Shown: one piece after another, positions 1-62,770 of the stretch
How the letters are laid out: each line of letters opens with the position of its first letter
How positions within the stretch are numbered: position 1 is the first letter of the stretch
Virus record (IMG/VR): IMGVR_UViG_3300045988_037736
Location: 32,001 to 96,000 of that record
Reading direction: 5' to 3' (one strand)
DNA: 64,000 bases
Source of the DNA: a virus
Program-made: the position numbers and the translations under genes
The notes under the pieces: model-generated
Told to the model about the DNA's origin: nothing
Databases searched by the model: none
The model's input: only the letters and a program-made list of their open reading frames with translations

Positions 1-3000
1 GAAAGTGTTACTGCAAACCTTGCAGAAGAAGCGGGTCACTTTGTTATAGGTGCACTAGGAGAATCTCCCTTAGTAAAAAGACTTATGGAACTTCTTACCC
101 CAGAGGTACAAAGGGAAGCATTAGGTGATGAACTTGATGATAAGGTTCTTGGTCCTGATGGAAGGAGAGAAGTTGCAGGTGCCTTAGTAGGTAAGGCTCT
201 GATGGGAGGAGTTGATAATGAGAAGCCTTGGCAAAGAATGGTTCATAGAATTGTTAACTTAGCCAAGAGAGTCTTCTCCACTTTTAGTAAAGGAGATAAT
301 GCAGCTTACAGAGCTACACTTGAAGCAAAAGAAATAGCTGATAAACTTGTCAGTGACTTTATGTCAAGTAACTTTAGCGGTTCAATTGAGAATGCTCTTA
401 ACACAAGAGAAACTCTCTATAGTGCACATAGTTCTACTAATACAAAGCTATACAGAGAAACTGTCAATAGATTAAGTCTTGCTGTATCAGAACTCAGGAA
501 CATAGACAATAATGTTTTCACTGAAAGAATGATGGGCATTCTTGGTGTAACTGAGGCAGGAAGGACTAATCAAATCAATGCTAATACCTTCCTATCTGAT
601 AGCATTGCTCTTGATGGCATTACTGAGGCACTCAGTCTTATCTCTGACATGATGGGTCAAGGGAAAGAGATAGATACTCTTCTAAAATCTATTGACTTTC
701 AGAATGTTGGAGACTTCATGTCTAACATGGCTGAGAATGGAAAGAAGCTAAGGCAGATACACTCCTTTGTTACTCTCTCTTATACTCTACAGGGTATCAT
801 AGAAGAAGCTTGTGTTGAGGTAGGTGGTGAAAGGAAACTGAAAGGCAATATTGACCATGTTCAGTTGACAGATAGTCTTGGTAATGTAGTCACAGTAAAT
901 CTAAACCAAGTACTAGACAATCTTGCTAAAGCTAATAAGACTCTTATGGCAGAGTTGTTCTCTAAAGAGAGACAGTTCTTCTGTAGATTCTGTGAGGACA
1001 CTTTAGGAAGTAAATATGTGCAGACTTCTGCAAGAGTATTGTTTAGCAAAGATGGTAGATGGGGTTTGTCCTTTGAAGGAGAGGGAAAGATAAATGTTTC
1101 AGATGCCTTGGAGCACATGGAAAGTGATATTACTTTCTTTGAGAGGTATCTTGCTTCTATGTCTAATAATTCTGACCTTATAGGTCAAATAGTAGACAGA
1201 GCTACAAAGGCTGCAAACAAAGCAGCAGATGACCTTACAAACCAATGTCAGGATGAATTAAGAATCCTTGAGGCAAGACTAAAGAAACTTGGATTGAAAG
1301 ATACAAGTATTCTCTTTGAGAGAAGCTCAAGGGATGGTCAGCTTACAGGTAATATCATGTCTGATGTAAATTGGGGTGACTATGAGAATGATTGGAAAGA
1401 GTTTAAGGAACAGGAGCTTGAAAACTTCAAGCAATCAATACCTAACTTAGACCAATTGACAGAGTTCGAGAAAGCTCTTCAGTGGGATATGTATTTCAGA
1501 CCTCTATCAAAGGCTTGGCATAAAACTCATAGTGACTATGACCAGAACTTACAAAGGTATGTTCCTAATAGTAACTATGCTAACCCTGACTTTGCTGACC
1601 TTATGTCTAAACATCCTGGTCTTCAAGGATGGTATAATGACTTCATGCAATTAAAGACAGGTCTTGATGCAAGACTTCCTGAAGGAAGTACACTTGCAGT
1701 AAGGATGCCTCAGTTCAAAGGAAGGTTTATCAATAGGGTAAAGAATCAAAACAAAGGTCTAACAAAGGCTGTAGGTCATGCTTTAAGAGGTAGTATCATG
1801 GACACCTTCTGTGAGAGTAGTGAAGATACAGACTTTGGAAGTAACCAAACTTATAACTCTGAGGATGAAGAACTATTTGCTAATGCTCTTGCCCATGAGA
1901 AAGAGAAGTTACATAGACTGCCTCTCTTTGGTATAAACAAGTTGCAGGATATGACAGAATTGTCAACTGACTTGTTCCAATCTACACTTGCTTATGCTGG
2001 AATGGCTAATAGTCATCTTGCAATGAGTCAGATAGTAGATACTCTTGAAGTAGGAAGTAATGTTCTTGCTAAGAGAAGTGTTGCTGGTCAAAGTACTGAG
2101 GAACAAAGGCAAGGTAATAAGTCTAAGGCTTACAATAGATACCTCAAGTTCCTTGATAAGCAGGTATATGGCATTGGTAACACAAAGCATAAGATAGGCA
2201 AGAAAGTAGTACTTGAGAAAGTGCTAGCAGCTCTATCAGGATTTGCAAGTAAGTATTTCCTAGGAGGTAATGTTGCTGGTGGTATGGTTAACACCATGAC
2301 TGGTTTCAATGAAATATTCAAAGAAGCCTTATCTGGGGAATACTATTCTCTGAAAGATTTCCAAAAGGCTAACAGACTTTACTTTGGGTCATTTGTCAAC
2401 AACTGGATGGACTATGGTAAAGATGTAAAGAGTGATAAGGTATCTCTACTTATAAGGCACTTTAACATTCTTGGAGACAGTAGACAGAGGCAAAGAGATT
2501 GGGAGAATGACAGAAATGGCTGGACCAGAATCTATAATAGGTTCAGTGAAAGCCTATTCCTTCCATATAAGTCTGGTGACCATTATATGTCAACTATATC
2601 CTATCTTGCACTTGCAAGTAAGACTATGCTATATGATGAGTATGGCACTAGAATATCTCTGTTTGATGCTTATAAAGTGGTTGACAATGAAGATACCTAT
2701 GGTAACAAGGCAGGAAAGACTTTATCTCTCGAAGGGACATTCTTCAAATCAGCAGATGGTAAGCAGGAATATGACATGGTAAATTCTATCATATCTCAGA
2801 TAGAAGCTGCTATGTCTAGTCCATTTGGAGCCTCAATCAATCTTACACAGGATGAGCAGGATTATCTTGCAAACAAGGGCTACAACCTCGCAGATACTGA
2901 AAATACTCTTGCTAATCTAAGGCAGGATGCTGAGAACCTTACTTGGAATGCTACTGATGAGACAGAGTTCATGGATAAAGCCAGGGAGATTAACATCAGA

Positions 3001-15206: not shown

Positions 15207-18200
15207 TTACATAGAGTACTTAGTAGATACATTATATATTGTCACTCTCTAGTTTTTATGTGAGGCACTCCCTAGAGTTATTTCACTCCATGGATTTCTA
15301 ATCCTTGCCCTACCATAGTGCCTTATAACATCTTTACCATCTTGTGCTACATAAGGAGACCTAGGAATATTAATCCTCCATATATTAAACTTCTTCCTTA
15401 TATCTCTACTATTAGTGAGGTCAGTATAAGCTTTCTAATAGTCATTCTCTGCTTGGATAAAATCAAATGGCTTATCAGAATTATCCTTTTGGTCAAAGTT
15501 CCGTACTTCAGCATTAACTTCCACTGTGTCAAAAATTTTTGTGTAAGGAGAATTACCATTAGATATATAAGTGAAACTAAATGGTTTAAAGTTACCATAG
15601 AACTCATTATATACCCCAGTGAAGTTCTCCCATAGCCTAACTTTATCCTATTCCTATTTTATAGAGTAAAAACCACCTTCAAAGTCAAACATACCTTCAG
15701 TTTCACCATAACTTAAAAAGGAAGTGAACTAGTTAAGCTTAGTTGAGAAACATAAAGCTTCTTCGCCATGAGCTGGAGAGAAATATACATCCCCATTCAT
15801 ATTATCAACAAAGCTTCTTACTCCCATTCCTGTAGGAGTCCACTCTGATAAGTCAACATCATTCTTAACCCACTAACTCATTCCTGAAAGCTCACTTACA
15901 TTTACTAATTCCTAACCATATCTATAAATACTTTTGGACTCGTTATCTATGAAGAATAGACCTGTTGAGGTAGGAATAATAGACCATTTATTAGCACATC
16001 CAATAGTAGAGGATAGAATCCTGAACCCATCTACTCTGTTTGAATTTCCTATCTCAATAGGTACTCCGTCTGTAGGATTGAGCTATACTCTAGAATTAAA
16101 CATAATCTAGCTAATAGATTTTTCCTAGAAGCCAATAAGAGTATCATTGATGGAGGTTAGACATGTTACAGACCCTTTATCAGCAGGAAGGTCTAAGGTA
16201 CTAGCTAAAGTGACATTAGTCCATGGGTCAATTATAGACTAGGGATTTTTCTTTAAGGACCATGCTACCTAGTAAGGAAATGTATCTATTTTATAATAGT
16301 CCTTGTCTAGTGTTCTGTAGTTAAAGAAGTTATCTAACTAAGAGTATACTTCATTTATCTTATAAGAGTCAGGAGTAATGTCGAAGTTGGATAGCTGCCC
16401 TCTTTTAGTATCGTATCTTCCATCAAGATTAATATGTGACTCAAGCATAAATGAACCTATTTCTACTATCTAATTAGTATCATCATCTGCAAAAGGATAA
16501 GTCTTTACACAATCATATCTTGTACACCATGTATCCCCATAGGCATAAGGAATCGTAATTATCTTATGTGGAGTTGATACAAGAGGAACTGACTCACTAC
16601 TTGGAACCCATAAGTTATTTTTGATAGCTTCATCCGATTTACCTCCAAACCTAGTGTCTGGGTCAACCCACTATGTTAATTCAGCTATAGGTAATGTGGG
16701 GGAATAATCTTTATCCTCTTCAAGTAACTACAGAGTGCTATTCTGGATGGTAAACGTATTATCTGTATTATCTGTAGATGGCTCTGAATACATTTTATAA
16801 GATGTAATACCAACTATATTTCCGAGAGATACCTTTAAGTTTAATAATACCTAATCCCCAAGATACTAAAAGTTATCATGACCATCCTGTAAGTTTTCAA
16901 AAGGACCCCATTTTATTGGCCCCGCATTCTGAAGAACTCCTACCCACTCACCATTTACATAGTGATGATAGATTATACATCCTTTCTTCACTAAAACAGT
17001 CACTTTAGTTCCTGAGTTTTGTACCTGCCAATACCCTACTTCTCCTATCTTTACCCTTTTAACCAATACACGCTTAGCTATGGGTCCAATGTAAGCCATT
17101 ACAATCTGATAGGTTCCTAGAGCAGTCACACTTGTATCGTCAACATCTAGTACTAAGTTCCCCTCTTTGTTATAAGTCCCATAAAAGGTTTTTGAGCCTA
17201 TAAATGAAAGGATAGGATATGAAGTACTGGTAGAAGTATTATTCTCCCATCCAGAGGGGGTATACTATGAAGTTATAGTCTCACCAGTAACAGAAGTGTA
17301 TGGTAGTACTGGAATAACCTTAGGGTTATCCTCATCATATAAAGAGAATACTAAGTGAGGAGATGATTTATACTTCATTCTTACTGACTCCCCAGAAGTA
17401 GGTACATTAGTAGGGGATACTTGTGAAATACTATCATCAGTACCAGCATAAATAGGATAAGCTGATGTGGCTGATACAATATCATCTACATTTCCAAAGT
17501 ATAGTACATCCTAGTCTAAATGTGGAACACGAACAGTTAAGCCTGTAACCTCTTTAGAAGAGAATAACTTAGGAGTTGTAATTTTAATATTGTGGTTATT
17601 AGAGTTAAAAAAAGTTGACTTACTTTCAAAATACTTTAAATTGGAAATAATCTTCCATTTTAGTATAGCTGTTCTATTTCCGGATTTCTCTATAATCTCA
17701 GGAGACCTGACAATATCATTATTTAGTGAGCCTGTTCTATGCCAAGGATAAACTAAATATTTAACAATACCTGTCTTATCATCATCTAAAAAATCCCCTC
17801 TTAGTATTTTATCTTCAAAACAACATGATGATACAAATCCTCCATTAACAGTAGTATTAGGAGTAGTACAGTTCACTGGAAATCCTACAGGATGATGTAT
17901 AAATCCTCCAGCCTGAGAACTAGCTTTAGAGGTCACTGCTAAATCTATATCTCCATACAATCCATGTAGGCTAGCGGCTCCAACAATATTTAGCCTTGCT
18001 CCTTCTAATTGAGTAGTATTTATATAGGACCCATACTCAATTTCTGGGGAATGTAAAGTAACTAAGTTACTATCAACAGCAAAAGTTGAATAATGAGACT
18101 TTATACCATCAGAGGGAGAAATAATTTCCTATATTGACTTATTGGAATCTCCTGGCAGAGATGACTATATTTCAGCACTTCTATTACCTCCACTGAAAAG

Positions 18201-19955
18201 TGTATAATTATGTTTATACTAAATAGTCGACCCCTAATCTATCGAGGTAGAGGTTTCTTTTGGCTTTCCATCTACATATACAGGAGATGGCCTAAAGAAC
18301 CAAGATGACATTGCATATGGGTTATTCATGTGCCTTCCTCTCACACTGTAGACAGTAGGATTTAAAACTCCCTAACATATAATATTTCTCTCCGCTGGCT
18401 TAGGGAAAACAACACAAGTTCTAGCCCTTCTTACTCCAGCTTTTAATAATGAGGCAGTTGCATTAGGGAATAACTAAAGTTCCTTAGTATCCACCCCGTC
18501 AGTAGTGCCCCAAAAATATGAATTATTTAACTCTACATCAAGAAAACCATCACCATCACCATCACTATTCCTTATGACTTTGTTTAATGGAATAGGTTCT
18601 GACCATTCTCCAGTCTTAAACTAAAATTGAACTCCTAATCTATATGTTTCTCCTGCCTTAAAATGACCAGGCTTAAACTATGGTAGATAAGGATAGTATT
18701 TATTTATACCCTAATTATCATAAGTATCTTCGGCTAAAAAACAATCTGTTAACCCTAAAGAGTCCCCATTTTCAGCCTCTTCCTATTGAAGTAATGTAGT
18801 TAGTTCTTTAGTATTTTTCTGAACAGTAATGTTTCCATAAAACATCACTCCTTCTTTGCTAGTGATAGTTCCAGCTAATATTGTTTGTCCCCCAGTATAT
18901 AATAGTTTAGCAGGGTCTTCTATTGAACCAGTAAGACCAGTATCTGTATATTCAATTGTTTTTACCAGCTAATCCTCAGAACCAAACACATCATACCAGT
19001 ATTCTCCTTCAGCACTTTCCTCCTAGCAATCTTTTAAGTCTAAGTCAGCTACAATCTTAACTGTAGGCTATGCGTCTAGTGAAGTTCTATGTATAGAATA
19101 AACCCTTATATAATCAAAGTTATCAACATTTTCTACTTTAATTGTGAAAGAAGTTATAACCTTCTCTTCTGGATTACCAGCTCTATCATAATTCCTTATA
19201 TACTATATGGGAGATACATAGAATATGTTACTTTCTTGCCCATACTTATTAAAGTATGTAAGAGCATATTGAATTACTCCAGGAGAAAATTCTCCATGAC
19301 TGGAACTTCTACCTACCAGTACTCTTTCTTTTAACTATAGGTTCTATACAAAATCAAATGGAGACTCAGCTCTGTATATCCAATTTCCTTTTTCATACCA
19401 CTTTTCTAGATTTTCTATAACTTCCTAGGAAACTCCCTCACTTTTCTATGGATTTGAGAAATTAACTCCGTCTACTATAACTTTACTAGCTATATCTTCA
19501 GGAAGTTTCAACTCTGGGGCAGTTATATTAATAACTCTAGGCTGGTTAATTCCATCTGTCCAATACAACTTATTCACAAGAACTGACTCACTATCCCCTA
19601 ATATTTCTAGAGGGTGATTAGCATCAAGACCTAGCACTCCTTCAAATAGAGTAACTTTAATCCACTCCCCTTTATCTTCATGGAGTCTATATATTCTAGA
19701 TACTTCCTGAGTGTCATTCTAACTTACAGTAAATACTACTAAGTATCTATTAAGCACACAATGTCCTACGTACTACCCATCAAAAACAACACCAGTGTCC
19801 GTATTTCCCTTCTCATTAGTGATAGAAAACCCAGTATCACTATCCCTATTAGTAAGTCTCACATTTAAAGCATCCCATAAAAAAGACTCATCTTGTCTTG
19901 ATGGGTGAACATCTCTCCTTAGGCCTTTAAATATATGATTATCTGAATACATCAT
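15207..19955 (-). CDS. giant (~1582 codons) tail-fibre/tail-like protein encoded with dozens of in-frame TAG codons
   Basis: Five tracked minus ORFs in this span (ending at 16866, 17511, 19446 and 19773, plus the start MMYSD at 19955) share one frame. Each ends in CTA (=TAG on the minus strand). The first TAA in that frame is at 15207-15209. No other frame has ORFs >=60 aa across 5.7 kb. Confidence 0.55.
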
Positions 19956-19965
19956 GTTAATATAA

Positions 19966-20664
19966 TTAATGAAGTTTGATATACTCCTTAGAACCAAGAG
20001 TTTTAAACCCTTTGCTATGCTCATTAGTCCTGGAGATTAAAGTATTCCAAGAATTAGTGAAAGATTGGAGTTGGTCAATAGAGGGCCTAACAAGGTCAGA
20101 CTGAGCTTGACCCACTGCCCAAGCATATTGTTGTTCTGCGTGTTGCAGAACCTGTTGAGTTATCCTACCAAGCTCAAACTGAACTGTAAAATGTTTTACC
20201 TTTATAAATAGCTCAAGTGCTTCCTCAAAAGAACCATTCTCTGGTATGAGAGGGAATCCTTCTTCATCTGTCGAGAAAGCTCTATAAGCTACTTCTATAG
20301 TTCCTTCCTTCATAGAAGTAAAAATACAACTTCCCTGTAGTTTATAGGTAAGGTCATTATCTCTTGTCTTATCAGGACTCATATGAAATGAATCAGTAGA
20401 GTATCTGAATACTTCATGAAGTACTCCATTACAGTTATGACCAACTGCTCTTACCTGTATCATTTCATAGAAGTCACAAGGTAGCTTACCTCTATAATTC
20501 TCTATCTCAACCTTCTCTGTTTTCTCAAGGAATATTGAGGGCATACCTACCTTCTGTATGAACCTGACAGCATAATTGACTGCCCTTTCTAAAGATAAAT
20601 CTTGTAGCAAGGGATTATCCATCAGGTTATCAAGAACTTGTCTTATGCTTATATATTTTGTCAT
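19966..20664 (-). CDS. hypothetical protein 232 aa
   Basis: Clean ORF, TAA stop 10 nt upstream of the next gene's start. Confidence 0.65.
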   Translation of the reverse strand: MTKYISIRQVLDNLMDNPLLQDLSLERAVNYAVRFIQKVGMPSIFLEKTEKVEIENYRGKLPCDFYEMIQVRAVGHNCNGVLHEVFRYSTDSFHMSPDKTRDNDLTYKLQGSCIFTSMKEGTIEVAYRAFSTDEEGFPLIPENGSFEEALELFIKVKHFTVQFELGRITQQVLQHAEQQYAWAVGQAQSDLVRPSIDQLQSFTNSWNTLISRTNEHSKGFKTLGSKEYIKLH

Positions 20665-31788: not shown

Positions 31789-32220
31789 TTATGCCGCTGA
31801 TGCAGCAGGTGGTGTTATAGCAAGAGTCAGAGAGTCATTTATTGTGTATGAGAAAGCACATCCACAATTTATATTAGACCCAAACTGGTCTCTTCCCACA
31901 TTGGTAAGTGTTACTGTTGTAGGTAGAGCAGTCTGACCCTGGAATGCAACTACAAAGTTTTCAGTAAATAGCTGAGTATGTGCATTGCAACCACACTGAC
32001 TATTCTGAGTTACAACTGTTATCACTGCCTTGACAGGGATAAAGACAGTTGTCTCAACCAACCTTGGGGTACCTGTAGTATAAACTACAGATACCTGAGG
32101 TTGTATAGTTGAATCTACACAGAACGGACGGCATAGCTTTTCCTTGTAAGTAGCCATGAAGGCTAACTCATTAGCCACTGGAGCAGTGGCTAATCCTACT
32201 GGTGAAACTGTTACTGCCAT
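31789..32220 (-). CDS. hypothetical protein 143 aa
   Basis: ORF, TAA stop. Confidence 0.55.
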   Translation of the reverse strand: MAVTVSPVGLATAPVANELAFMATYKEKLCRPFCVDSTIQPQVSVVYTTGTPRLVETTVFIPVKAVITVVTQNSQCGCNAHTQLFTENFVVAFQGQTALPTTVTLTNVGRDQFGSNINCGCAFSYTINDSLTLAITPPAASAA

Positions 32221-50313: not shown

Positions 50314-50385
50314 TTAAAGTTAGTCGCCCCACTCTGGCTCGAACAGAGACCAAAGGATTTAGAGTCCTCTGTGCTAACCATTACA
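50314..50385 (-). tRNA. amber suppressor tRNA-Sup (anticodon CTA), built on the tRNA-Gln scaffold
   Basis: TGCCTCA-TG-GTGT-AATGGTTA-GCAC-A-GAGGA-CTCTAAA-TCCTT-TGGT-CTCTG-TTCGAGC-CAGAG-TGGGGCG-A. Anticodon 34-36 = CTA with U33/A37. Positions 8-26 are 18/19 identical to tRNA-Gln(TTG) at 54395-54466. Confidence 0.75.
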
Positions 50386-50890
50386 CCATGAGGCAATATT
50401 TTATTAACAATGCAAAGGTATGAAAAATAATTTAAATTACCAAATAAATTGATAATAAATTTTTAATAAAAGTGTAAATAAAATGGAGATAATATAGCAT
50501 AAGCTACGGTCATATACCAAGATTGATTAGACTCCAGGTCTACACTAGCAGTTCTTTCTTTTTGAACACCAAGAGAATATAATAAATTGTGAGTTCTCCA
50601 TTCATTAAGTAAGCTAAACATAGTTCTGTTATTAATAGAACTGTATGGGTAAAATCTAGCTTTTAAATGAATGAGAAACTACTTCATATCAGATAATGAA
50701 GTGATTTTATAGGAATCATAAATAGCTATATTATTATCAGATATGTCTACTTGATATTTCTGTTTATTATACTAAACTGTGTATTTCATACTTTTACAAA
50801 TAGTAAAGGGGTTATGATAACATGAATTACGCCACCTGAATATTTACAGTAAAACTCAATGTTATATAAATACTTAATTTCTTATTTCAG

Positions 50891-52736: not shown

Positions 52737-53213
52737 TTATTTTCTTTTGTTTTTACCTGCGTATGTACTTGTCTGTGAATGACAGTTAGGGCATAAGAAT
52801 CTTAAATTCTCTAATCTATGGTCATTATTTATACCATTTATGTGGTCTAGATGTAGAGATAGTGGCTGACCATTCCACGAGGATATACCACATTTACTGC
52901 ATTCATATTTTAGCAACTTATTGTCTATAAGCCTTCTTTTAAGTGAAGCTATATTAGCATAGCTACTATTCTTTACTAGTATGTTCTCAATGGGATATAC
53001 TTGCGTTGGAGATTTTATGCTTACATCTCCAAAGTGAGATGTTGAACATCCTAGTTCTTGGATTCTTCTTTTCAAGACATCTTGTGAAGAATCCCCTTTA
53101 GTAGTTAGTCCTAATGCTCTCAGGGTATCAGAGTAACTATTAACTCTATTTATTAAATTTATAAACTCCTTATCAGAGATACTATATACTTTACTTGTAC
53201 CTTTTCTTCTCAT
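52737..53213 (-). CDS. HNH homing endonuclease
   Basis: C-terminal HLDHINGINNDHRLENLRFLCPNCHSQ motif. Paralog of the plus-strand HNH at 61700-62116. Confidence 0.8.
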   Translation of the reverse strand: MRRKGTSKVYSISDKEFINLINRVNSYSDTLRALGLTTKGDSSQDVLKRRIQELGCSTSHFGDVSIKSPTQVYPIENILVKNSSYANIASLKRRLIDNKLLKYECSKCGISSWNGQPLSLHLDHINGINNDHRLENLRFLCPNCHSQTSTYAGKNKRK

Positions 53214-53215
53214 AG

Positions 53216-53258
53216 TGGTAGGTAAAAGAATCGAACTTTTACTAGTACCATACCTACC
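53216..53258 (-). other. tRNA minihelix-like element (acceptor stem + T-arm only, 43 nt) directly upstream of the HNH gene
   Basis: GGTAGGT-ATGGTACTAGT-AAAAG-TTCGATT-CTTTT-ACCTACC-A. Perfect 7-bp acceptor and 5-bp T-stem with a canonical T-loop. No D-arm or anticodon arm. Confidence 0.45.
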
Positions 53259-54318: not shown

Positions 54319-54390
54319 AACAAGTTTGTACTCCCTGTAAGACTCGAACTTACAACTTAGGGCTTAGAAGACCCTTGTTCTTCCATTGAA
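54319..54390 (-). tRNA. tRNA-Arg (TCT)
   Basis: T-arm GTAAG-TTCGAGT-CTTAC. Anticodon arm AGGGT-CTTCTAA-GCCCT. Confidence 0.7.
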
Positions 54391-54394
54391 CTAA

Positions 54395-54466
54395 GGGAGC
54401 ATAGTTGCCACTAAAGGACTTGAACCCTTACACTCAGAACCAAAATCTGATGTGCTGACCATTACA
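54395..54466 (-). tRNA. tRNA-Gln (TTG)
   Basis: TGCCACT-TG-GTGT-AATGGTCA-GCAC-A-TCAGA-TTTTGGT-TCTGA-GTGT-AAGGG-TTCAAGT-CCTTT-AGTGGCA-A. Same architecture as the CTA suppressor. Confidence 0.75.
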
Positions 54467-54701
54467 CCAAGTGGCAATGTTCTCTTGAATTACAGTGCAA
54501 AGTTAGGTAAAATTTTTGATATATGCAAATTTTTAGACAGAAAAAAAAGGAGAATCACCACACTCGACGCGTCGGGTACAGGTGGCACGTTCTCCTTCTC
54601 TTTTTTTTTTATTTTGTTAAAATTTTGTGTTGGCTTATGTTTTTTATAAAATACCTGCGAAAATCCTCCTGAGAGACAGGAGTCTATCTGCTTTTATAGG
54701 C

Positions 54702-60953: not shown

Positions 60954-61177
60954 AGACAATAAAACTCACCCTTAAAGGAATAATGCTCTATGCCACAATG
61001 CTGACAACTATGGTATATATAGCAGGCATAGACAGTATCTATGACAATGGACACTTCCTTCTTGCAACAAGTATTGTGGCATTACCTATATATATATGCT
61101 ACAAGACCATCACAGGGGAGGAATTCAACATACTATCAGGTAACAAACTATGGGGAATACCTGATGATGAATCGTGA
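60950..61177 (+). CDS. small two-TM membrane protein 75 aa
   Basis: Two hydrophobic segments. Confidence 0.5.
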   Translation: MKTIKLTLKGIMLYATMLTTMVYIAGIDSIYDNGHFLLATSIVALPIYICYKTITGEEFNILSGNKLWGIPDDES

Positions 61178-61269
61178 TTTTGTGTTTTTTTAAGGTAAGG
61201 ATGATTAATTTTAGGATGACGTCGGTAACACTTCACATAGTCTGTGAAGATAATGTGGAGTTTTTACTT

Positions 61270-61343
61270 GCCCTCATAGCTCATCAGGATAGAGCAACAG
61301 TTTCCTAAACTGTAGGTGGAAGGTTCGAGTCCTTCTGGGGGTA
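61270..61343 (+). tRNA. tRNA-Arg (CCT)
   Basis: GCCCTCA-TA-GCTC-ATCAGGATA-GAGC-A-ACAGT-TTCCTAA-ACTGT-AGGTG-GAAGG-TTCGAGT-CCTTC-TGGGGGT-A. Confidence 0.7.
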
Positions 61344-61368
61344 CTAAACAATTAAAGTAAGAAGGAAA

Positions 61369-61506
61369 ATGAAAACAGAAACAATGGAGAAAGCAATACT
61401 GATTTTTCAGTGCATAGCAATTACTGTAGCCAGCCTATTCTATTTGATAGGTATGACACTTGATGCCATATATCTAGTAGCATTAGCAATATACGTAAAG
61501 AAGTGA
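61369..61506 (+). CDS. small hydrophobic protein ~45 aa (MKTETMEKAILIFQCIAITVASLFYLIGM...)
   Basis: Short ORF between tRNAs. Below the tracking cut-off. Confidence 0.3.
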   Translation: MKTETMEKAILIFQCIAITVASLFYLIGMTLDAIYLVALAIYVKK

Positions 61507-61513
61507 TGCAAAT

Positions 61514-61552
61514 GGTTCCATAGCTCAAATGGATAGAGCAACAGACTTAAGA
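61514..61552 (+). other. 5' half of a split or disrupted tRNA (acceptor GGTTCCA, D-arm, anticodon stem ACAGA + loop CTTAAGA; anticodon TAA)
   Basis: D-arm TAGCTCAAATGGATAGAGC is near-identical to tRNA-Arg(CCT). The acceptor pairs perfectly with the 3' half at 62118-62152. Confidence 0.4.
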
Positions 61553-61606
61553 TACTTTAACTCTAAGGATTTCATAGTATAGAAATTTATTACTAACTTT
61601 GCATAA

Positions 61607-61679
61607 CTCCCCTTAGTTCAGCGGATAGTAACAATGGTCTTCTAAACCATAAACCCCAGTTCGAGTCTGGGAGGGGAGA
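61607..61679 (+). tRNA. tRNA-Arg (TCT), second copy, on the plus strand
   Basis: Acceptor CTCCCCT/AGGGGAG. Anticodon arm ATGGT-CTTCTAA-ACCAT. T-arm CCCAG-TTCGAGT-CTGGG. Confidence 0.65.
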
Positions 61680-61699
61680 CTAAAATAAATTTATATATT

Positions 61700-62116
61700 A
61701 TGAATCCAAAGAGAAGAAGTAATTGTATCTGCGTAAATTGTGGTGATGAATTTTATCCAGCATATAATATGTCTGGAAAGTATTGTTCAAATAAATGCCA
61801 GATGGAATACCAATCCAAGCAAAAATACCAAAGATATTTACAACATCCCGAAGAGTATGAAGGACAGAGTAATATGTTTTGGGTAAAGAAACATATCCTA
61901 AAAGAACAAGAACATAAATGTTCTATTTGTGGATGTGTTGATACTTGGAATAATAAACCATTAGTATTTATACTTGACCACATTGATGGTCATGCTAACA
62001 ACAATATTAGAACTAATCTTAGACTTGTTTGCCCTAATTGTGACTCACAGTTAGACACATACAAAAGCAAGAATAAGAATAGTGATAGAATTTATCATCA
62101 TAATCATCACAGATAA
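61700..62116 (+). CDS. HNH homing endonuclease (paralog of 52737-53213)
   Basis: ILDHIDGHANNNIRTNLRLVCPNCDSQ with N-terminal CxxC pairs. Confidence 0.8.
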   Translation: MNPKRRSNCICVNCGDEFYPAYNMSGKYCSNKCQMEYQSKQKYQRYLQHPEEYEGQSNMFWVKKHILKEQEHKCSICGCVDTWNNKPLVFILDHIDGHANNNIRTNLRLVCPNCDSQLDTYKSKNKNSDRIYHHNHHR

Positions 62117-62117
62117 A

Positions 62118-62152
62118 TCTGTAGGTTGTGAGTTCGAGTCTCACTGGAATCA
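62118..62152 (+). other. 3' half of the split/disrupted tRNA (anticodon stem TCTGT, variable AGGTT, T-arm GTGAG-TTCGAGT-CTCAC, acceptor TGGAATC-A)
   Basis: Pairs with the 5' half at 61514-61552. Together they give a canonical 72-nt cloverleaf. Confidence 0.4.
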
Positions 62153-62297
62153 CTATTATTATTAGATGGTCATGACCTTCGACCGAAAAAAGGCAGTACC
62201 CTGCATACTCTAATGTAGGCTTCTGAATAGGATAAGTTGTGCCGAGTTGAAACCATAAAGAAGAGAAACTAAAGGTTGGACAAATGAATGAGGCTAA

Positions 62298-62332
62298 AAA
62301 CAAAACTTGCTTCGGAGTTTTGTTATAAATAC
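62298..62332 (+). terminator. terminator-like hairpin (ACAAAACT-tgcttcgg-AGTTTTGT) followed by a T-rich tract
   Basis: 8-bp inverted repeat followed by TATAAATACATTTTTG. Confidence 0.4.
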
Positions 62333-62353
62333 ATTTTTGAAGAAGCAACATCT

Positions 62354-62748
62354 GGGGCATATCTGGTATTTGATTGCAAATTATTAGGTAAGAGAACATG
62401 CAAGAGGGCATACTCTATAAATAGCAAGTAAACTTAGATGCAGAAGTTGATGAAACTCCTGTGAGAATGGCTGCATAAGCTTGACTCTGAGCAGCACTTG
62501 CTTGGAAACAGAAAGGTGCAAAAGTCTGAAAGGAAACTAAGACTGGCAGTCCGAGGTCCTAGTGCTTAATTAGCTCTGATATGCACGGAGAAGGTAAGCC
62601 AACTTTTTCTCTGTTTATGGACAATAAAACAGAGTGGTGGAAAGACAACTAGTCAACCCTGTGAAGAAAACACTCCAAATTGAAAAGCATGTACAATTCT
62701 CTTATGTGAAGTTTGTAAGACGAGGGTTCGACTCCCTCATGCTCCACT
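62354..62748 (+). ncRNA. ssrA: tmRNA (ssrA-like) candidate, ~395 nt, 3' CCA not encoded
   Basis: 5' GGGGCATATCTGGTATTTGATTGC and 3' GACGAGGGTTCGACTCCCTCATGCTCCA-A resemble tmRNA ends (GGGGCUGAUUCUGGAUUCGAC... / ...GGGUUCAACUCCCGCCAGCUCCA). Perfect 7-bp acceptor pairing between the two ends. Candidate tag frame ...AEVDETPVRMAA-stop at ~62435-62473. Confidence 0.55.
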
Positions 62749-62770
62749 AATTAAAACCCAAGATTAACAA

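Follow-up and report, generated by a model that had tools for sequence, protein, structure and literature searches.

Does a transfer RNA (tRNA) gene whose two halves are separated by an HNH endonuclease gene and a second, complete tRNA still give rise to a tRNA, or has it been destroyed by the insertion? This question is raised by a locus of a crAss-like (Crassvirales) gut phage of Bacteroidetes, contained in positions 32,001 to 96,000 of the IMG/VR virus record IMGVR_UViG_3300045988_037736. This whole stretch of 64,000 nucleotides (nt) is called here the window, and related loci in other genomes and contigs are given L numbers. crAss-like phages rank with the most abundant human gut viruses, and the HNH gene of the window shows ~70% DNA identity to annotated HNH genes of the uncultured crAss phages cr53_1 and cr116_1. 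The locus is most probably explained by a mobile homing-endonuclease cassette that destroys its target, a tRNA-Arg(UCU) gene, and brings a replacement for it, and not by a spliced or split tRNA.

The first-pass annotation of the window described a tRNA cut into 5' and 3' halves, and both pieces are present, far beyond chance. Their limits had been set at 61514-61552 and 62118-62152 and are revised here, the tRNA-derived DNA being 61514-61548 and ~62116-62152, both on the + strand. The 5' remnant of the resident gene contains tRNA positions 1-34: the acceptor 5' strand, the D arm, the anticodon-stem 5' strand and the loop nucleotides C32-U33-U34, and reads GGTTCCA TA GCTC ... GAGC A ACAGA CTT from 61514. 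The 3' remnant contains A37-A38, the anticodon-stem 3' strand, the variable loop, the T arm, the acceptor 3' strand and the discriminator A, and reads TCTGT AGGTT GTGAG TTCGAGT CTCAC TGGAATC A to 62152. The acceptor strands had been called perfectly complementary; they do pair at 7/7 positions, but one of the pairs is a wobble (G2-U71), and the anticodon stem pairs at 5/5.

The 5' remnant shares 32/35 positions with the intact tRNA-Arg(TCT) genes of L006, L008 and L013, and the 3' remnant shares 34/37 positions with intact tRNA-Arg(TCT) alleles. An exact 27-mer of the 3' piece, TCTGTAGGTTGTGAGTTCGAGTCTCAC, is found in 11 IMG/VR viral contigs and 26 metagenome contigs, mostly in uninterrupted tRNA-Arg(TCT) genes, and the uninterrupted form reads ...GGATAGAGCAACAGA CTTCTAA TCTGTAGGTTGTGAGTTCGAGTCTCAC..., with the stem-loop ACAGA-CTTCTAA-TCTGT. 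L006, L008, L012, L013 and ~20 metagenome contigs have intact orthologs that share the body and the loop CTTCTAA. These orthologs show tRNA-Arg(CCT) upstream (L006 and L008) and a transfer-messenger RNA (tmRNA) downstream (L008 and L013), and the split gene of the window has the same conserved neighbours: a tRNA-Arg(CCU) at 61270..61344 (+ strand), found by ARAGORN and Rfam, and a phage tmRNA at 62354..62749 (+ strand; Rfam RF00023, 70.2 bits), 200 nt from the split tRNA. Since the halves match intact tRNA-Arg(TCT) orthologs with the same neighbours, the interrupted gene is recognised, by sequence and position, as a tRNA-Arg(UCU) gene. The anticodon UAA initially proposed for it is a product of counting 7 nt past the stem into cassette bases (CTT/AAGA, the slash marking the junction). 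C35 and U36 are absent from both junctions of the window, where the tRNA sequence stops at U34 (61548) and resumes at A37 (~62116), so tRNA-Arg(UCU) cannot be restored by joining the pieces. ARAGORN calls the joined halves Leu(taa) when the 'UAA' join is used, and Arg(tct) when CT is put back.

The cassette contains 565 nt (61549-62113) and is located within the anticodon loop after U34. Both ends fall in the loop (CTT/AAG...AGA/TAA) with loss of C35; in the window U36 is also lost, or an extra A stands in its place. The 3' junction reads AGATAAA/TCTGT in the window and AGATAA/TCTGT in L007, the window having one A more than L007, L140 and L141. As first described, the insert holds a complete tRNA-Arg and an HNH gene, preceded by a leader of 58 nt at its left end (61549..61606, + strand). 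Within the leader, a TAACTTTG box (61594-61601) placed 5 nt ahead of the nested tRNA is conserved in L007, L140 and L129, the remaining leader being 12% diverged; a second copy of the box (54498-54505, minus strand) precedes the first tRNA of the main array by ~22 nt. The box resembles TAnnTTTG, which we take to be the Bacteroidetes -7 promoter element, and it is considered a putative promoter element of this type. The leader RNA shows no significant structure (folding z -0.73). The nested intact tRNA-Arg(UCU) (61607..61680, + strand) is called Arg(tct) by ARAGORN and reaches 56 bits with Rfam RF00005, against a gathering score of 29. It differs from that of L007 at 1/74 positions, compared with 12-13% in the adjoining leader and HNH gene, and by this measure it is conserved to the degree of a working tRNA. 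Together with its exact T arm and acceptor it was found in cassettes only, never stand-alone in the search; the nested tRNA of a second cassette type also occurs stand-alone (L086 and L093). The anticodon stem of the nested tRNA-Arg(UCU) differs from that of the interrupted gene, and when such stems were compared between interrupted and nested tRNAs, no clean rule emerged by which the nuclease would tell them apart.

The gene of the endonuclease, HNH-1, extends from 61700 to 62116 (+ strand), encodes 138 amino acids (aa) and ends in a TAA stop codon (62114-62116) that overlaps the remaining tRNA loop. Its product matches HNH families of PHROG with E values of 3.6e-21, 9.7e-18 and 5.8e-15, holds two CxxC pairs, and shows the motif DHIDGHANNN..NLRLVCPNC (DHxDG...N...NL), which aligns with the HNH regions of I-HmuI and Cas9. 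With the Pfam HNH models, the window protein stays below threshold and the cr116_1 homolog lies almost at the HNH_3 threshold. HNH-1 thus carries an HNH nuclease motif and is a predicted homing endonuclease. Between the window and L007 the gene shows 14, 7 and 34 differences at the first, second and third codon positions, respectively, which indicates purifying selection. A second HNH paralog of the window (52737-53213, minus strand; 158 aa), with 43% identity over the HNH domain (E 5e-17), is located in the main tRNA array between tRNA-Asn and tRNA-Trp, and a tRNA-like minihelix formed by an acceptor stem and a T arm only (53216-53258, minus strand) lies 2 nt ahead of its ATG. The HNH start codon lies 1 nt after the end of the nested tRNA in the L134-136 lineage. 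These two spacings suggest that the nuclease mRNA is created by tRNA processing.

Comparison with relatives lacking the insertion had been proposed as a check, and uninterrupted tRNA-Arg(TCT) genes were found at the same site. Empty sites are shown by L006, L008, L013 and ~20 metagenome contigs, and filled sites by the window, L005, L007 and L140, the same split being present in independent assemblies (L005, L007, L140 and L141-143). In the metagenome contigs L140 and L141, the cassettes show 0/566 differences and the tRNA halves show 8/73, including positions 31 and 39, which abut the loop. The presence of identical cassettes in different tRNA alleles indicates that the cassette moves horizontally, and the same comparison makes it much younger than its flanks and shows that its ends stayed the same on entry into different alleles. 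The common GTCTCCA/TGGAGAC allele, abundant without an insert, is seen in its filled state in L140. Another tRNA-Arg(UCU) allele, the site of a related HNH-1 cassette, was recovered in 50 contigs: 37 intact, 10 filled, two with a truncated HNH gene and one with a deletion. A scan of JGI (Joint Genome Institute) metagenomes for the 5' junction gave 0 matches. Of the two readings offered by the first-pass annotation, the endonuclease-associated disruption is the one borne out, with the HNH gene inside its presumed target and the cassette absent from the same site of relatives.

HNH-1 has 2347 homologs at E<=1e-10, among which the genomic context was read for 11 lineages, and in 11/11 the gene is located inside or directly beside a tRNA-Arg(TCT)-type gene. 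The same cassette is found in alleles of the same tRNA in L005, L007, L140 and L141-143. The leader, the nested tRNA-Arg and the HNH gene are found in a different tRNA-Arg allele (GAAGAAG..ACAGC / GCTGT..CTTCTTC) in L129 and L130, and the nested tRNA and the HNH gene in still other alleles in L018, L137 and L134-136. The HNH gene is alone in the loop or stem in L128 and in the cr53_1 type, which includes L019-L026 and 10/50 contigs. L131 shows a tRNA-Arg, the HNH gene and a T-loop remnant only. The HNH gene is free-standing in L133, directly after tRNA-Arg(TCT) in the tRNA array of a 212-kb contig, and in cr116_1 it lies between tRNA-Leu and tRNA-Arg(TCT). A second HNH family (PHROG 2255), present in L009, L010, L085, L090, L102 and L117, splits the same tRNA 6 nt upstream and in opposite orientation, and also contains a nested tRNA-Arg(TCT). 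No similarity was found between HNH-1 and the PHROG 2255 family, and the two families are unrelated. In the RefSeq genome NC_055889.1 (cr53_1, L002), a split tRNA-Arg-type gene surrounds an annotated 'HNH endonuclease' at ~2358-2927, and both of its halves, AGTCCCTTAACTCAATTGAATAGAGTAACACA... and ...TGTGTAAGTTATGGGTTTGAATCCCATAGGGACTA, are unannotated.

Decay is found in the halves as well as in the endonuclease gene. Acceptor mismatches are present in L018 (two) and L137 (one), the pattern expected of chimeric arms derived from different alleles; L085 and L090 show an A31-G39 mismatch, attributed to co-conversion; and the D arm and T loop of L138 are decayed. The HNH gene is truncated in L027, L028, L045 and L048, L031 carries a deletion, and L091, L096 and L117 derive from filled copies by deletion. 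Remnants are represented by L131 and L138, of which L131 retains only that of the T loop, and the decay products include deletions between homologous T loops.

Other unusual tRNA genes were noticed. Uninterrupted alleles of two tRNA-Arg(UCU) backgrounds (L103, L106 and L118; L056, L058 and L071) show a C35->T change, with loops CTTTTAA or TTTTTAA, so that an Arg body bears the anticodon UUU (Lys); the base changed, C35, is the very one that the cassette junctions lack. Such alleles may have arisen by loss of a cassette, may confer resistance, or may represent true switches of anticodon. A tandem 12-mer, ACAGACTTCTAA, formed by the anticodon-stem 5' strand and the loop, occurs in the same tRNA-Arg(UCU) three times in L014 (3360-3458) and L015 (7304-7402) and twice in L105. 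ARAGORN miscalls the genes with this repeat as a 99-nt tRNA-Leu(taa), and the repeats may mark past repair at the nuclease target or make it resistant. The main tRNA array of L007 (6140-7040, minus strand) includes tRNAs with an 8-nt anticodon loop (ARAGORN 'ttgg' and 'ttct'), tRNA matches lengthened by internal inserts to 119 and 136 nt, and several isolated 3' fragments of tRNAs, every one with a ACTTACAA motif in front.

In the mechanism proposed, relatives that infect the same cell and have an uninterrupted tRNA-Arg(UCU) gene would be cut in this gene by the HNH enzyme, within the anticodon loop or beside it, the presumed substrate being an intact tRNA-Arg gene of the ACAGACTTCTAATCTGT type. 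Repair of the break would use the donor genome as template and so copy in the cassette, the tRNA halves acting as homology arms; co-conversion would be slight or absent, as for enzymes encoded in introns whose cleavage and insertion sites coincide. What is left of the interrupted gene would be an unspliced, dead remnant that looks conserved only through its recent working past. The nested tRNA-Arg(UCU), with its different anticodon stem, would presumably resist cutting and could compensate for the lost gene, and together with the leader it would probably give a promoter and an RNase P/Z processing site for the endonuclease mRNA. Arginine codons of the window are AGA (68%) and AGG (32%), with CGN ~0 (5/573 Arg codons); since arginine is encoded only as AGA/AGG, loss of the destroyed copy could plausibly be made good by a spare tRNA-Arg(UCU). 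A further tRNA-Arg(TCT) is found in the main array of the window at 54328-54400 (ARAGORN). CpG is strongly depleted in the whole window (observed/expected 0.12, with GC, TA and AT dinucleotides at ~0.92-0.98), in line with the essential absence of CGN arginine codons. More tentatively, and as a possibility that we rate below even, the cassette may be a natural 'cleave-and-rescue' drive acting on an RNA gene, in which the nuclease destroys the tRNA-Arg(UCU) genes of competing crAss-like phages, whose decoding of arginine relies wholly on AGA/AGG, and carries a cleavage-resistant copy that supplies both the rescue and the promoter and processing site.

Splicing of the interrupted gene was examined with several tools. 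An Rfam scan of 61000-62700 to E=10 found no intron or ribozyme family, only the two tRNAs, and ARAGORN in intron mode did not call the split gene. The search for an intron family covering the insert, proposed with the first-pass annotation and run with Rfam covariance models, thus gave none, and the earlier remark that a group I core would not fit into the insert also stands, with only 77 nt outside the open reading frame (ORF) and the tRNA and no core detected. As a positive control, the same kind of scan found a group I intron in L113 (RF00028, 41.5 bits, E 3.7e-9, below the gathering score), at 1767-1962 (minus strand) in the anticodon loop of a related tRNA with an identical 27-nt 3' core. 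L011 has at the same place, after U34, an insert of ~243 nt (~2190-2430, minus strand) that is strongly structured (z -3.75) and matches no Rfam family. The loops obtained by joining the halves of family members (CTTAAGA, TTATATA, TAACAG.. and CTTTTT..) show no consistent anticodon, and the Arg anticodon is missing; a join by the U-ending/G-ending rule gives an 8-nt loop, CTTATAAA, and does not restore a functional gene. Complementary leaders or a bulge-helix-bulge were not seen at the locus, where no formal bulge-helix-bulge search was made and the proteins were not screened for a ligase or endonuclease.

Some candidates and arguments were tried and rejected. A tRNA-Leu(UAA), an ochre suppressor (UUA), a tRNA-Ile(UAU) and a tRNA-Lys(UUU) were considered as spliced products, and after enumeration of each join none was consistent between the window and its closest relatives. 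A group I intron, a group II intron or another ribozyme was rejected after negative Rfam scans at gathering scores and at E<=10, with an unstructured leader and no call in the ARAGORN intron search. Compensatory changes in the halves (2:71, 3:70 and 4:69 in the acceptor stem; 10:25 in the D stem; 31:39 in the anticodon stem) were not accepted as proof of function, since the same alleles exist uninterrupted and identical cassettes are found in different alleles.

Some observations weigh against the explanation by a gene-destroying cassette. The halves of the window and L007 differ at 1/72 positions, whereas divergence reaches 12% for the leader, 24% for third codon positions and 31% for intergenic DNA, and the value for the halves, taken alone, looks like purifying selection; the anticodon stem flanking the cassette still pairs in nearly all copies, as in an intron; an intact allele with the acceptor stem of the window (GGTTCCA/TGGAATC) was not found among the uninterrupted genes recovered; and some HNH-1 cassettes (L128 and the cr53_1 type) lack a nested tRNA, so that 'rescue' is not obligatory. 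As to the first of these, the L140/L141 result accounts for the low divergence of the halves, the recipient sequence having been a working tRNA until the invasion. The same low divergence, like that of real tRNAs amid neutral-looking DNA diverged by 12-31%, would be expected if the halves still made a working tRNA, by an unknown protein-dependent cleavage and ligation (for example by RtcB or a phage RNA ligase) or by pairing in trans as in Nanoarchaeum. This is very unlikely, in spite of the complete pairing of the acceptor and anticodon stems, of an anticodon stem whose two strands flank the cassette undamaged in most alleles, and of the fact that processing of the nested tRNA would sever the transcript between the halves. 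Without C35 and U36, tRNA-Arg(UCU) cannot be rebuilt; the extra A of the window makes its joined loop unequal in length to those of L007, L140 and L141; members of the family yield unrelated anticodons, or no anticodon at all, when their loops are joined; the conservation is accounted for, with no need of a function, by identical cassettes in different alleles; mismatch or decay affects the halves in L018, L137, L085, L138 and L131; and the Rfam scan found no ribozyme. To our knowledge, bacteria have no known tRNA splicing endonuclease. The cis- or trans-spliced split tRNA of the first-pass annotation is left without support on the same grounds, together with the differences among the junctions of relatives.

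A degenerate group I intron, whose HNH gene stayed in place after loss of the ribozyme core and acquisition of a tRNA gene, is a very unlikely origin. The site is a real intron site, as shown by the L113 intron in a tRNA with an identical 27-nt 3' half; L011 has its strongly structured ~243-nt insert after U34, the boundaries of the cassette match those of an intron in precision, and the 5' piece ends in U, with a G 5 nt before the stem. However, no remnant of a core was detected in the 77 nt left outside the ORF and the tRNA, the cassette has no visible sequence similarity to the inserts of L011 or L113, and C35 is lost; moreover, this explanation concerns the origin only, and would leave the element of today an insertion that does not splice. 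Chance resemblance or an assembly artefact, such as a chimeric contig joining two tRNA fragments, has a negligible probability. It draws only on the general risk that metagenome assemblies mis-join repeated tRNA genes, and it is refuted by the recurrence of diverged copies in independent assemblies from different samples and databases (L005, L007, L140, L141-143, L129/L130 and the RefSeq genome of cr53_1); in addition, both halves are >90% identical to intact genes.

The gene-destroying cassette shows partial likeness to several known systems. Group I introns are located in the anticodon loops of bacterial and phage tRNAs, such as tRNA-Leu(UAA), tRNA-Arg(CCU), tRNA-Ile and tRNA-fMet, and an endonuclease ORF is often associated with them. 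The location is the same here, and a genuine intron of this kind is present in the related tRNA of L113, but the cassette lacks a ribozyme core, its exons restore no anticodon loop, and a complete tRNA and a putative promoter are found inside. Archaeal split tRNAs, as in Nanoarchaeum equitans, consist of halves with a full anticodon loop and complementary leaders and need a splicing endonuclease, which is not known from bacteria or their phages, and archaeal tRNA introns show a bulge-helix-bulge. They share with this locus two halves with complementary stems separated on the DNA; the halves described here, in contrast, do not together hold a complete, conserved anticodon loop. In synthetic Cleave and Rescue (ClvR) gene drives, an engineered nuclease destroys a needed gene and is linked to a cleavage-resistant copy, with no self-copying into the cut site. 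The likeness is one of logic: a target-destroying nuclease with a linked spare copy, here presumed to be resistant and needed.

Among natural phage systems, SegB of T4, the closest in setting, is a free-standing endonuclease encoded among phage tRNA genes, with its site inside a tRNA gene of phages lacking SegB, and it is inherited preferentially, with neighbouring tRNA genes (PMC2330249). HNH-1 is similar in lying among phage tRNA genes, and its relative in L133 is free-standing after tRNA-Arg(TCT); the intergenic, SegB-like placement is not that of the window and is found in the free-standing forms of L133 and cr116_1. SegB differs in being a GIY-YIG enzyme, in its intergenic position and in recognising the T-psi-C region, whereas the HNH gene described here is inside the anticodon loop of its presumed target, destroys that gene and has ends of intron-like precision; its product is a predicted nuclease. 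The closest systems in architecture are mobE in the nrdA gene of Aeromonas phage Aeh1 and mobA in T4 gene 39/60, 'transposed' endonuclease genes that split host genes (PMC2988022). In both cases an intron-less HNH gene is inserted in a functionally critical part of a gene and splits it. Their protein fragments reassemble and function, whereas the split RNA gene of the window cannot rebuild its anticodon and its function would be supplied by the second intact copy within the insert. Literature searches on phages and Crassvirales gave no specific description of a tRNA split by an HNH gene. The apparently distinctive features are the precise placement, without an intron, of an insertion in a tRNA anticodon loop, the presence in it of a further gene for the same isoacceptor, and the recurrence of this arrangement with two unrelated HNH families.

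The tRNA-Arg(UCU) genes of crAss-like phages would thus be a battleground for homing endonucleases, and the tempting misreading of the locus as a split or intron-containing tRNA(UAA) is corrected. Unannotated tRNA wreckage is present in published genomes, the RefSeq genome of cr53_1 among them. The cassette ends define a likely recognition site for a compact (138 aa), putatively sequence-specific HNH enzyme. If the nested tRNA is a true rescue copy, the locus shows a natural nuclease linked to a resistant copy of its own target, and a solution to living inside an essential gene that is distinct from self-splicing, a third way besides introns and inteins. If the cleave-and-rescue drive is true, at least two unrelated HNH families reached it independently.

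Other features of the phage and of this region are as follows. The tmRNA of the window was missed by ARAGORN, and its orthologs in L007, L008 and L013 were called, with tag peptides ending in ..VRMAA or ..YRVAA. In cr106_1 (L001, 2581-2668), an atypical-looking gene of 88 nt annotated as tRNA-Ile(gat) is found at the position of the split tRNA, between tRNA-Arg(CCT) and the tmRNA. The region 15210-20036 (minus strand) of the window contains 1609 codons without TAA or TGA and with 40 in-frame TAGs, and a suppressor tRNA with anticodon CTA, labelled 'Pyl' by ARAGORN, is located in the tRNA array (50323-50395, minus strand). TAG appears to be a sense codon in this phage, and since other long ORFs show no in-frame TAGs, the recoding looks gene-specific.

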